Below are positions 7,649-41,056 of a stretch of DNA of 41,230 nt, piece after piece. This DNA comes from Reclinomonas americana ATCC 50394. Lineage: Eukaryota. The position numbers were made by a program, and so were the translations under genes. The notes under the pieces are model-generated. The model did no database searches and was not told the DNA's origin. It was given only the letters and a program-made list of their open reading frames with translations. The stretch lies in contig PS015013.1 of NCBI GenBank assembly GCA_048213135.1, positions 287,119 through 328,348 of the forward strand, written 5' to 3'. Numbering within the stretch: the stretch's first letter is position 1; every line of letters begins with the position of its first letter.

Positions 7649-10600
7649 GTCGAAGGACAAACGAACGGACTTGGCGGACTTCATATCACTTTCTTCCTCA
7701 TGGCCTCTCTCGCGACAGCGTTGTTTGCCCGTGCGGTCTGTCTCACGCTCACTCACACACATGCTTGTTGTCTTTGCTGCTGCTGACTCACTCACTGTCG
7801 CGCGCAGGTGGGTTTCGTGGAGAACTTGGTGCTTGGTGCCGATGGCAACTATCACAGCATGAGTGAGGTGCCGATGCCGCAGTCGACCGAGGTCGGCGCT
7901 GATGGTGTGTGTGTCTGTCTCTATGTGTGTGAGAGAGAGAGAGAACTGTGCTGACGTGCATGCACAGGCACTCGTCGCAATGCAAAGTACCCGGAGTTGG
8001 TGGAGGTCATGGATGGCACGGGCGCGTCGACGACTGTTGACTGTCTCCTGTTGCGTGCGCGCGTGTGTGTGTCTCTGCGTGTGTGTGTCAAGTGAGTGGC
8101 ACTGATGATGCGGAGAATTGCACATCCAAAAGGCGCACTGTCGAACGTGTCGGAGAGCACAATGCATTCGGCTACATTGTCGGCTCGGGCGACGAGCGTG
8201 AGTTCAAGTGGCTCACCTTTAATGAGGTACTCGTCGACATGGGAGAGAGCGGAGAATTTTGTGTTCTGATGATGACGGTCCGTGGCACCAGGTGCTGGCG
8301 CGCGTCAAGAACTTTGCCAGTGGTCTCCTGTCGCTGCGTTTGGTGTCGGGCCAAGACTTTGTGGCCATCTACGCCAAGAATCGCCCCGAGTGGCAGATTG
8401 CGGCATTCGGCGCGGATATGGCGTCGCTGCCGACGGTGGCGTTGTATGACACGCTCGGTGCGGATGCGTCGGCGTACATTCTCAACCATTGCGCCGCCAC
8501 CACCGTCATTGTCGACACGAATGAGGCGGCCGACAAGCTGCTGGCGCTCAAGGGTAGTGTGCCACACATGCGCAACATTGTCATCATGGACGACAATCTG
8601 GTGGCGGGCACGCAGGCCACGGCGCAGCGCGTTGGTGTGCGTCTGTTCTCCATGCATGCGCTCGAGCGCGAGGGCGCTCTGCATGAGGTCCGCATGCGCT
8701 ACCCAAAGCCGGTGAGTGACGGGATGTGCTCGCTTCTGTGCTAGTTTGCTGCTGTTGCTCACGTGACTTGTCTGCAGGATGATGTGGCCGTGGTCATGGT
8801 GTGCATGCTTTTTCGTGTGTGGACGTGTTTATTTTTTGTGCGTTGCCACTCACTCGTGATGAACAGTACACCTCGGGCTCCACCGGCAACCCGAAGGTCT
8901 GGCGTGTGCATTCACACTCTCTTTGTCACCGCGCGCGCGCTTCTGACTTTGTTGTGCCGTGTCGCAGGGTGTCGTGCTGACGCACCGCAACATTGTGTCG
9001 GTGGGCGCTAACTTTATTCACGTCTCTCGTTGCACCCCGAGTTTTCTCACCAGCCGCGTCTCAGACTGCTGCGGGCATTTGCCGCGTGGCCACTGTCGAC
9101 GAGCAAGACGTGTTCCTGTCGTACTTGTTGCGTCTGCTTTTGTGTCTCGCCACTTCACACACGCACTCTTTCTCATTGTGTACTTGATGGCTGTTGTGCG
9201 CAGGCCGCTGGCACACATTCTGGAGCGTGTGGCAGAGCTCATCTTTGTCAGCTGCGGCTGCAAGATCGGCTACTTCTCGGGTGACGTGCGCAACCTGACC
9301 AAGGATATTCTGCTGCTGCGCCCGACCGTGTTTGCCGGCGTGCCGCGTGTGTTTGAGCGCATCGCTGACGGCAGTTGCGTTGTCGTTGTCGTCGTCGCCA
9401 GCCAGCCAGTCAGTCAGTCAGCTGCCGTCTCACCCCGCGGTGCGTCTGCAGTCAAGGAGCAGGTGAAGAAGCAGTCGCTGGTGAAACGCAAGATTTTCGA
9501 GTTTTGTGTGGCGGCCAAGAAGAAGGCGGTGGCCGCCGGCTACCCCACTCGCGTCTACGACAAGTTGGTCTTCAACAAGATCAAGGATCGCATGGGCGGC
9601 CGCGTGCGCATCATGCTCAATGGCGGCGCGCCGCTGAAGACCGAGGTGCAGGAGTTCCTGCAGGCGTGCATGTGCTGCCAGCTGGCCGTCGGCTACGGAC
9701 TGACCGAGACATCGGCCGGTGCCACTGTCACGAACCTCGGCGACGTGTCTCCTGGCCGCTGTGGCCCGCCACTCTCCTGCTGCGAGATTCGCCTCGACGA
9801 CGTGCCAGAGATGAATTACACCTCCAAGCGCAACCCGCCGGCCGGCGAAGTGTGGATCCGTGGTCCCAACATTTTCCGCGAGTACTACCACGACCCCGAG
9901 AAGGTGAGAGTGACAGAGGCGCTGCGAGTGTGAGCCGCTCTCCCTGCTTTGGCAATGTGCTGACGAGAAGAAAATGCTGACAGACTGCGGAAGACAAGAC
10001 CGCCGATGGCTGGTTCAAGACCGGTGTGCTCCTGTCTTTGTCACGAATGCCAGACTCGTACATCATCCCACCTGCTCACACACACGCACACAGGCGACGT
10101 GGGCGAGTGGAGCGCGGATGGCGTGCTGAGCATCATCGACCGCAAGAAGAACATTTTCAAGCTGTCGCAGGGCGAGTACGTGGCTGTCGAGAAGGTCNNN
10201 NNNNNNNNNNNNNNNNNNNNNNNNNNNNNNNNNNNNNNNNNNNNNNNNNNNNNNNNNNNNNNNNNNNNNNNNNNNNNNNNNNNNNNNNNNNNNNNNNNNN
10301 NNNNNNNNNNNNNNNNNNNNNNNNNNNNNNNNNNNNNNNNNNNNNNNNNNNNNNNNNNNNNNNNNNNNNNNNNNNNNNNNNNNNNNNNNNNNNNNNNNNN
10401 NNNNNNNNNNNNNNNNNNNNNNNNNNNNNNNNNNNNNNNNNNNNNNNNNNNNNNNNNNNNNNNNNNNNNNNNNNNNNNNNNNNNNNNNNNNNNNNNNNNN
10501 NNNNNNNNNNNNNNNNNNNNNNNNNNNNNNNNNNNNNNNNNNNNNNNNNNNNNNNNNNNNNNNNNNNNNNNNNNNNNNNNNNNNNNNNNNNNNNNNNNNN

Positions 10601-11744
10601 NNNNNNNNNNNNNNNNNNNNNNNNNNNNNNNNNNNNNNNNNNNNNNNNNNNNNNNNNNNNNNNNNNNNNNNNNNNNNNNNNNNNNNNNNNNNNNNNNNNN
10701 NNNNNNNNNNNNNNNNNNNNNNNNNNNNNNNNNNNNNNNNNNNNNNNNNNNNNNNNNNNNNNNNNNNNNNNNNNNNNNNNNNNNNNNNNNNNNNNNNNNN
10801 NNNNNNNNNNNNNNNNNNNNNNNNNNNNNNNNNNNNNNNNNNNNNNNNNNNNNNNNNNNNNNNNNNNNNNNNNNNNNNNNNNNNNNNNNNNNNNNNNNNN
10901 NNNNNNNNNNNNNNNNNNNNNNNNNNNNNNNNNNNNNNNNNNNNNNNNNNNNNNNNNNNNNNNNNNNNNNNNNNNNNNNNNNNNNNNNNNNNNNNNNNNN
11001 NNNNNNNNNNNNNNNGAGGGTGTGATGAAGGAGGCCGCCATTGTCGACCAGGTGTTTGTGCACGGCGACAGCCGCCACTCGTTCCTGGTGGCCATTGTGG
11101 TGCCGCACGAGAAGCAAATCAAGGAGCTGGCGTCGGAGCTGGGCGTGGTACGTGTGCTTTGTATCAGTTCCCCTCGTATATGCATGCTCATTGTGTGGCG
11201 GCAGTCGGAGACGGCCATGTGCGAGAGCCGTGTGGTGCGCGAGGCCGTGGTCAAGATGTTGCAGGAGGTCGGTCGCCGCGAGAAGCTGGTGGGTTTCGAG
11301 ATCCCCACCAAGGTGCACCTGACGCTCAANNNNNNNNNNNNNNNNNNNNNNNNNNNNNNNNNNNNNNNNNNNNNNNNNNNNNNNNNNNNNNNNNNNNNNN
11401 NNNNNNNNNNNNNNNNNNNNNNNNNNNNNNNNNNNNNNNNNNNNNNNNNNNNNNNNNNNNNNNNNNNNNNNNNNNNNNNNNNNNNNNNNNNNNNNNNNNN
11501 NNNNNNNNNNNNNNNNNNNNNNNNNNNNNNNNNNNNNNNNNNNNNNNNNNNNNNNNGCCATTCACCGTGGAGGACGAGTTGCTGACGCCGGCGGTTCGTC
11601 GGGTGTTTGACTCGCCATGTATCTCTCCACACGCAACATCCCTAATGTGTTGTTGTTGTGGTTGTATTGACACAGATGAAGCTCCGCCGCCCCAATCTTG
11701 TCAAGTACTTCAAGGAGCCGATTGACGAAATGTACGCCGAGTAA
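7647..11744 (+). CDS. Long-chain fatty acyl-CoA synthetase (ACSL/LACS family); start either 7647 or 7859; two gaps inside
   Basis: [13 protein letters not shown] (ATP/AMP loop), [29 protein letters not shown]...[31 protein letters not shown]; about 15 GT-AG introns. Confidence 0.95.
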
Positions 11745-11752
11745 GCGCGGCT

Positions 11753-40053: not shown

Positions 40054-40056
40054 CGT

Positions 40057-41056
40057 TTACTTGCGCGTACGTGCCCGTTTCTTTGGTGGCGCCTCCTCCT
40101 CCTCTTCTTGCGACGGTGGAGGTGCGGCCGCCGTTGATCCAGACGCCTCGTCGGCTGTTCGTTTGTCGCCTGCCTTCGCTGCTGCCGGCGGGGATGGCAA
40201 TGGCGACTGCAGGCCGTGCTTGGCACGAGCGTGAAACACCCACAACGCCCGCTCCAGCTGCCGCGGAGTGACGTCAAGCTCGGTGGCGCGCTCGCACATG
40301 GCCGTCGCGTAGCGCATGTAGTAGGGAACAGTGAAGGCCACCTTGCCCAGCTCCGGCACCAAGTGCGCCATGTCCTCATCGAAAAACGGCACACCCTCGG
40401 TCATGCACGAGAGGAACGCCGACGCCGTGGCCGGTCCGACACCGCTCAACTCGCACAGCGTCGTAATCGCCCCGCGCAGATCGCCGTCGACCTTGAACAG
40501 CCGATACGCACGCTCCGATAGCTGTCGCACAGTGGCATCGTCGTTCGAGGCCACTGCACCACAATAAGCATTGTACGACACAAGACAAGAGACAAACACG
40601 ACGACTCAACCGAGAGCGCCATTCCGCGGTCGGAACTGCACGCAGAGAGTGAGGAACATAAGGACAACAGTAGCAGCAGTTCAGCAACAATGCTGCTCCC
40701 ACCTTGCCACGAGCCATCTGCTCGGAGAGTAAGCACATGCATACATGCAAAGACAACGATCTTCCCTCCCAACCAAACCTTCCAGGAAGTAATGATCGAC
40801 GCCTCGTCACGAGTCATGTACACAGCATCGTCGCCCACTCGCTGCTGCACGGCCGCACGAACCTGCACGCCACACCCGCACGTGAGACAACACACAAAGG
40901 AGGTCGACATCGACCTCCAGCTGCAACCTTGCCAAACGCCTCCTCCATCTCGCGCAGCTTGTCGCCGGCCTTCCCCGGCACAGCTCGCACAGCGGCATCG
41001 TATGCTGCCACATCGGAAAGCTGCAACACGGCCTCTGCGCTCTCCACAGGCCACAT
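40057..41056 (-). CDS. Helix-hairpin-helix (HhH-GPD-like) protein of an uncharacterised eukaryotic family; start may lie further upstream
   Basis: YMTRDEASIITSWKMARGKFRPRNGALVASN (built from two micro-exons), LCELSGVGPATASAFLS (HhH), VPFFDED, LERALW; C-terminal NLS-like PPKKRARTRK. Confidence 0.8.

Follow-up and report, generated by a model that had tools for sequence, protein, structure and literature searches.

A frequent class of GTTGCGT 5' splice sites follows non-G exon ends in a Reclinomonas americana contig and may be read one base out of register

How is a 5' splice site recognised when its consensus appears to start one base too late? This question is raised by a 41,230-base stretch of Reclinomonas americana contig PS015013.1 (hereafter the window), an intron-dense eukaryotic locus with a G+C content of ~59% outside 5,065 N that are spread across 11 runs. 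The main donor consensus of the window is G/GTG(C, A or T)G(T), where the slash marks the splice junction. A preliminary description listed 16 donors of another kind, reading GTTGCG or GTTGAG (together GTTGMG), and proposed that the lineage routinely uses a second register for pairing with U1 small nuclear RNA (snRNA). All 16 hexamers are present at the listed positions and strands. As donors they fall into three groups: six are pinned by homology, five are supported by a gene finder blind to the donor motif, and five stay candidates. The sequence statistics support a genuine GTTGMG donor class that is common and is associated with exons ending in a base other than G. We favour, with modest confidence, the reading that the GTTGCGT sites are genuine and frequent U2-type donors read through a register displaced by one base, most simply by U1.

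The class is seen most directly where conserved proteins fix the exon ends. Ten to 12 diverse homologues per gene were aligned with a spliced protein-to-DNA aligner, the sole splice rule of which is a GT or GC start and an AG end. Six GTTGMG donors are placed exactly, in four conserved genes, by 9/10 to 12/12 homologues (9/12 for the donor at 23568), and the alignments are gapless across all six junctions, among which phases 0, 1 and 2 are represented. In the ACSL gene (long-chain acyl-CoA synthetase; ~8.1–11.7 kb, + strand), a 77-nt intron at 9127..9203 (+) starts at actt/GTTGCGTC in phase 2. The split codon TT/G encodes the Leu of SYL/PLAH, both donor and acceptor are agreed by 12/12 homologues, and the junction LSY/LPLAHILE is gapless. 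A 78-nt ACSL intron at 9374..9451 (+) starts at ggca/GTTGCGTT in phase 1 (11/12 homologues) and joins ERIADG/IKEQV, aligned with RIYNA/ITNAV. In the REP gene (Rab escort protein/GDI-like; ~18.3–20.9 kb, +), a 72-nt intron at 18893..18964 (+) starts at gcga/GTTGCGTG in phase 0 (9/10 homologues), with the junction FVR/VPSSRGDVF. The FARSB gene (phenylalanyl-tRNA synthetase beta subunit; 21.1–23.6 kb, −) contributes two introns. One, of 60 nt at 23125..23184 (−), starts at tgct/GTTGCGTG in phase 2, its split codon CT/G encoding the Leu of NRYDL/LCLEG at a gapless junction (12/12). The other, the 125-nt first intron at 23444..23568 (−), starts at ttca/GTTGAGTG in phase 1, and reading through it gives A-GT and then a TGA stop. 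Finally, in a gene for a bacterial-type AsnRS (asparaginyl-tRNA synthetase; 25990–27800, −), a 71-nt intron at 26765..26835 (−) starts at acaa/GTTGCGTC in phase 0 (10/10). All 10 homologues are bacterial and intron-less, and the sequence aligned with the junction is ALDH/CMEDLEFFD. The preliminary description had relied on conserved motifs in three of these genes, and gapless homologue junctions do occur at its ACSL SYL/PLAH, FARSB RYDLL/CLEG and REP VR/VPSSR.

Apart from the donor, the six introns resemble their neighbours. Pinned introns measure 58–125 nt, and 58–87 nt in 26/27. By eye, a CTCAC, CTGAC, CTCAT or CTTAC-like motif lies 10–35 nt before CAG in each of the six; a branch-like CTSAY motif and CAG are common to them and to the other 21 pinned introns, and only the donor differs. 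Removal of the six introns restores conserved protein frames and leaves GT..AG ends, as expected of U2-type introns. The ~6.3 kb of spliced coding sequence in the four genes contains no frameshift and no stop. A U12-type identity was considered and rejected, none of the 16 sites having a /RTATCCTY donor; two matches to this motif occur in the window (0.8 expected), each on the strand opposite a gene model. A separate observation concerns the minor spliceosome. At 23749–23873 (+), in the spacer immediately before the FARSB start, Rfam model RF00548 identifies a full-length U11 snRNA gene with the 5' end AAAAAGG (51.2 bits; gathering threshold 39), indicating that the organism has a minor (U12-type) spliceosome. 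U11 is the only spliceosomal RNA found by the Rfam scan of the window (E≤1), which returned no U1, U2, U4, U5 or U6.

The enrichment of the motif can be judged independently of the earlier site list, by comparing k-mer counts in the whole window with an order-3 Markov model. GTTGCGT occurs 22 times against 7.6 expected (Poisson p=1.6e-5). All of the surplus comes from copies preceded by a base other than G, of which 21 are observed and 6.3 expected (A 6/1.4, T 10/3.0, C 5/1.9, observed/expected), whereas the form preceded by G, GGTTGCGT, is found once against 1.4 expected. The hexamer GTTGCG is weakly enriched (54 against 37–42, 1.3–1.5x); as it is common antisense in coding sequence, the heptamer and its preceding base carry the signal.

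The donors themselves give the same picture. GTTGMG makes up 6/27 pinned donors and 1.5% of all GT sites (p=2e-6). The last exon base of the 16 listed sites is A in eight, T in six, C in one and G in one, so that the stated 15/16 without G is correct, and G does precede most ordinary donors (17/20 of those pinned by homology). This contrast is significant both for the pinned GTTGMG donors, none of which has G at −1 (0/6; Fisher p=3.6e-4), and for the full site list (1/16; p=4e-6). The outcome named in the preliminary description as fatal to its claim, namely GTTGMG arising from independent position frequencies with no dependence on the −1 base, does not describe the data: ~0.2 GTTGMG would be predicted among 36 donors, by hand computation from the donor position table, and six are found.

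To the pinned donors can be added those of a gene finder trained on the four spliced models, which requires of a donor nothing more than GT. Coding sequence is scored with a 3-periodic model, introns by their content and a length prior, and acceptors by a matrix, with a bonus for a branch motif. With one gene left out at a time, 18/26 pinned introns are reproduced exactly, and the acceptor is correct in 21/26. The motif-blind parse predicts 116 introns, 105 of them in gene models scoring at least 20. GTTGMG starts 10 of these 105 (p=4e-6 against the 1.5% of all GT sites), and among their hexamers GTGCGT (10) is followed by GTTGCG (8), tied with GTGTGT (8). The class therefore makes up between ~10% (motif-blind parse) and ~22% (6/27 pinned) of the introns of the window. 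For the pinned sites, the parse is exact at 9127, 23184, 23568 and 26835; it includes 9374 when trained on all genes and loses it in the leave-one-out run, and at 18893 it uses the same acceptor with a donor 6 nt upstream. For the ten unpinned sites, it is exact at 17049, 18672, 31302, 33839 and 40610.

When the class is slid by one base, it overlays the canonical donors. Its positions +4 to +7 (G, C/A, G, T) match canonical +3 to +6, with T at class +7 in 13/16 and at canonical +6 in 9/20. The match extends into the exon: G is found at class −1 in 1/16 and at canonical −2 in 2/20, and C at class −2 in 9/16 and at canonical −3 in 8/20. The sites thus fit the local consensus after a one-base slide, exon side included, as members of a shifted register should, and this exon-side overlay fits an intron G+1 that occupies the slot of the exon G−1.

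These features suggest the following mechanism. GTTGCGT, or rarely GTTGAGT, after a non-G exon end would mark the start of an ordinary U2-type GT-AG intron, otherwise like its neighbours (57–125 nt, CTSAY branch-like motif, CAG acceptor). The reader of G/GTGCGT, most simply the 5' end of U1 snRNA, would bind the same heptamer displaced by one base, with intron G+1 filling the slot usually held by exon G−1, and cleavage would occur 5' of the sole available GU. Such sites would arise where the coding sequence cannot provide a G at the exon end. In accordance, the junction codons TT/G, CT/G, A/CT and A/TC encode conserved L, L, T and I in 4/6 pinned cases; in each, −1 is base 1 or 2 of the codon, so that an exon G is impossible and the intron would supply the G.

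To evaluate U1 as the reader, we folded donors with the universal U1 5' end ACUUACCUG (sequence from PMC4856993) using ViennaRNA. Canonical donors pair at −3.7 to −10.5 kcal/mol in 15/18; the exceptions are a pair that lack G at −1 (−1.4 kcal/mol for each) and the GUUCGG donor at 21353, which pairs at −3.9 kcal/mol in a non-canonical register. The two GUUGAGU sites pair well, 23568 in the shifted register (G+1:C9; −6.4 kcal/mol) and 40610, which has G at −1, in a bulged one (−5.6 kcal/mol).

Several observations weigh against the shifted-register reading. The fourteen GUUGCGU sites pair at −0.6 to −2.8 kcal/mol, two of them at +0.5, in no consistent register, so that the shifted register is not the minimum-energy duplex of GUUGCGU with the universal U1 5' end. 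Position +5 of the class is C in 14 and A in two, though a standard U1, with psi5 opposite +5, should favour A. Related heptamers show no excess (GTTGAGT 6 against 4.3 expected, GTTGTGT 10 against 14.1, GTTGGGT 1 against 2.7), although GTGAGT and GTGTGT are as common among canonical donors as GTGCGT. Five of the 16 sites are candidates only, all statistics come from one 41-kb window, and the motif-blind parse places ~30% of donors wrongly. Its yield outside the four training genes is low (GTTGMG in 4/69 introns, p=0.02), and there the −1 contrast is not significant (p=0.61). The earlier proposal of a routine second register is accordingly upheld in part: the class is frequent, is linked to a non-G exon end and overlays the consensus after one base, but universal U1 pairs weakly with GUUGCGU. 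On its own, folding with the universal U1 5' end does not single out the shifted register for these sites, the duplexes being weak in every register. The weak pairing suggests either a changed 5' end in the U1 of this organism, or in a paralogue, or that other factors carry the sites.

The first of these possibilities can be put as an explanation of its own, in which a U1 with a non-universal 5' end, changed in the lineage or encoded by a paralogue, is dedicated to the class; a one-base shift would still be possible. With G/C at U1 positions 5/6, for example, or A at position 8, GUUGCGU would become a near-perfect partner. Such a reader would account for the weak pairing with the standard 5' end and for a k-mer excess confined to GTTGCGT, the class being nearly restricted to GCGU after GUU. 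Canonical +3, moreover, is G in 16/20 donors and A in 1/20, which fits C rather than psi opposite this position. However, position +4 of canonical donors is mixed rather than C-specific (A 5, C 7, G 3, T 5), GC-rich algae with a GUGCGU consensus keep the universal U1 5' end, and to our knowledge this end is nearly invariant across eukaryotes. We consider a dedicated reader unlikely.

In a bulged duplex, G+1 and U+2 would pair with U1 C8 and A7, one U (+2 or +3) would bulge out, and GCGU would pair downstream. A +2/+3 bulge is known in human (PMC4856993), and 40610, the sole class member after G, is the site that folds in this way. However, such a register retains the −1:C9 pair, and the cost of the bulge should keep or even strengthen G at −1; G stands there in 1/16 class sites against 17/20 canonical donors, so that the non-G exon end would need a separate cause. 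The G-preceded heptamer GGTTGCGT also lacks any k-mer excess. The overlay favours the shifted register over the bulged U, which we regard as quite improbable here.

The sites could also need no special recognition. GTTGCGT would then be a tolerated variant, derived from related and perhaps recently gained introns or from mutational bias, and recognised chiefly through intron definition across very short introns. The introns are indeed short and uniform, such that intron definition could carry weak donors, and whole introns elsewhere in the window look like masked repeats. However, when aligned on their donors the 16 sites have nothing in common beyond +8, class introns match other introns in length, branch motif and acceptor, and both the avoidance of G at −1 and the exon-side overlay are left unexplained. 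We find this account still harder to sustain. An introner-like repeat family in particular was rejected, as an ungapped table of these sites, aligned in the same way, shows no column conserved past +8. An artefact, either misplaced junctions or an extra T from assembly error, is barely credible: although the aligner permits only GT/GC..AG and the junctions are placed from sequence alone, six of them are gapless in conserved motifs and in all three phases, the coding sequence free of frameshifts and stops indicates that indel errors are rare, and an assembly error would not track the preceding base.

The ten unpinned sites differ in their support. At 17049..17138 (+), a predicted 90-nt intron that contains a 20-N run starts at ggat/GTTGCGTC in the 3' part of the Pet127 model; it comes from the parse only. 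The REP candidate donor agca/GTTGCGGT (18672..18739, +) is exact in the parse and chosen by 1/10 homologues. Its acceptor is fixed at 18740, and the low agreement can be explained by several in-frame GTs, including 18678 and 18684, that precede this one acceptor. The parse further predicts an 80-nt intron at 31223..31302 (−; agca/GTTGCGCC) in a gene without Pfam match or homology, and a 72-nt, phase-2 intron at 33768..33839 (−; cctc/GTTGCGTC), followed by an exon in which the frame runs on (SLEHWGITGFEDW). The only site after G would start a predicted 57-nt intron at 40554..40610 (−; ctcg/GTTGAGTC), of ambiguous frame and acceptor.

The remaining five are candidates. For three of them the parse agrees on the acceptor and chooses another donor. 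A 78-nt intron at 14932..15009 (+; tgca/GTTGCGTC) has its acceptor predicted at 15010, with the in-frame GT 14926 (GTTGCAGT) chosen as donor; a 101-nt intron at 38429..38529 (−; ctct/GTTGCGTA) has its acceptor predicted at 38428 with GT 38519 as donor, and contains a CTGAC branch-like motif and CAG; and a short intron beside an N run at 33550..33601 (−; gaat/GTTGCGTG) has its acceptor predicted at 33549 with donor 33631. The candidate donor tcct/GTTGCGT (8050..8056, +) lies upstream of the conserved part of ACSL, where homologue alignments begin at 8104–8137, and the parse has a different intron there (8043->8093). At taga/GTTGCGC (38970..38976, +), a 59-nt GT..CAG intron with CTGAC is possible; the parse predicts nothing, and there is no + gene model scoring at least 20. 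The host genes of 31302, 33601, 33839, 38529, 38970 and 40610 have no usable homology in a Pfam search of 40 open reading frames (ORFs).

Eleven further GTTGCGT heptamers lie at 5015 (−), 11637 (−), 14544 (+), 15268 (−), 17779 (+), 21495 (−), 21568 (+), 25473 (+), 25608 (−), 39599 (+) and 39825 (−). All except one are preceded by a non-G base (10/11), that at 21495 falls within an intron of FARSB, and several run antisense to genes. Those without a confident gene model, such as 25608, 5015 and 17779, could be donors of unannotated genes. The preliminary description also mentioned a GTAGCG at 13685. It is absent from the + strand and reads ggac/GTAGCGAT on the − strand, where the motif-blind parse uses it to start a 64-nt intron with a TAG end (13621–13685, −); such a donor would belong to the class, with A replacing T at +3. 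A second kind of donor with T at +3 reads G/GTTCGT or G/GTTCGG and is found at 18353 (+; 6/10 homologues), 21353 (−; 11/12) and 11594 (+; motif-blind parse only). With G before the junction and G at +5, these donors are consistent with the normal register and a U at +3.

Clear Pfam matches among the 40 ORFs are ACSL, Pet127 (+), REP/GDI, FARSB and AsnRS, all five also assigned through homologues; weak matches are VPS9, GNAT and L32p. The best protein identities are 46% for ACSL and 52% for AsnRS (BLASTP), and 41% for the top FARSB match, while the REP search gives weak matches, with ~30% identity in the strongest two. The best-matching homologues are taxonomically mixed (plants, green algae, amoebae and animals). 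A metagenome scan with an ACSL exon returned 80 loci, none of them more than 44% identical over whole-exon matches. The lack of a near-identical protein in these collections indicates that the lineage is unsampled there. The best matches of AsnRS are bacterial enzymes of 446–467 residues (44–52% identity), and the gene contains six spliceosomal introns; its product is presumably targeted to an organelle.

The ACSL gene has two further features. Its AMP-binding signature is built from micro-exons of 21, 30 and 33 nt (8778–8798, 8867–8896 and 8968–9000, +), spaced by introns of 64–71 nt. In addition, N runs at 10198–11015 (818 bases) and 11330–11556 (227 bases) each separate, to the base, ACSL codons that homologues have next to each other: at the first run, residues 549/550 or the corresponding pair stand side by side in 5/5 homologues, and the second splits a codon AA/G flanked by residues contiguous in homologues P0004 and P0006. 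The N seem to stand in place of entire introns. These could be hard-masked introner-like repeats, far longer than the usual 60–80 nt, or gaps.

Shifted and single-nucleotide-bulge registers of 5' splice sites have been established experimentally in human (Tan et al. 2016, PMC4856993). The preliminary description called such mammalian sites a minority, in agreement with this source, in which the validated non-canonical registers together account for 1.5% of human sites and the +2/+3 bulge register for 68 predicted sites, 54 after curation, of 201,541. The human +1 shifted sites (Roca & Krainer 2009, as cited in PMC4856993) are the closest counterpart. Their consensus beyond the GU is moved along by one base, G+1 stands in the slot of the exon G−1, the exon does not end in G and the cut still falls at the GU; the test oligonucleotide of PMC4856993, ACA/GUCAAGUAUA, likewise has a non-G exon end. 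They differ in being a tiny atypical minority, against ~10–22% of the introns in the window, and in resting on experiment, whereas the class described here is known from sequence and GUUGCGU pairs poorly with standard U1. Human +2/+3 bulge sites share the GUU start and a consensus that resumes after the extra U, but they keep the exon-side pairs (PMC4856993), whereas the class avoids G at −1.

Two other groups bear comparison. Ordinary U2-type GT-AG introns with GTGCGT/GTGAGT donors occur in GC-rich protists and algae. They resemble the majority class of the window, being GT-AG and short, with a CTSAY-like motif and CAG; relative to them, the GTTGMG class adds the +3 base, the non-G exon end and tighter downstream positions. 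Tunicates show another lineage-wide departure from standard reading of the 5' splice site, with mostly non-GT/AG introns and modified U1/U6; in PMC13326754, a shifted U1 register is raised only as a possibility. Tunicate introns lose the terminal dinucleotides, whereas the introns of the class keep GT-AG and differ in register alone. A literature search, judged at abstract level, found no paper that describes GTTGCG(T) donors as a class or a shifted register used across a lineage.

An extension of the finding to the whole lineage, with a routine two-register 5' splice-site code in which GUUGCGU serves wherever coding rules out an exon-final G and is a strong partner of an altered U1 or a U1 paralogue, is possible, and we put it forward tentatively. 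Knowledge of shifted and bulged registers comes from a few human sites and from engineered minigenes. A genome with such a register in one-tenth to one-fifth of its introns would be a natural large-scale test bed, making it possible to address how the cut is positioned independently of pairing with U1, how coding constraints on the exon trade off against splice signals, and whether the near-invariant U1 5' end can evolve. Gene finders with a single donor matrix would shift such junctions by a few bases or lose the introns, to the detriment of annotation in this lineage.

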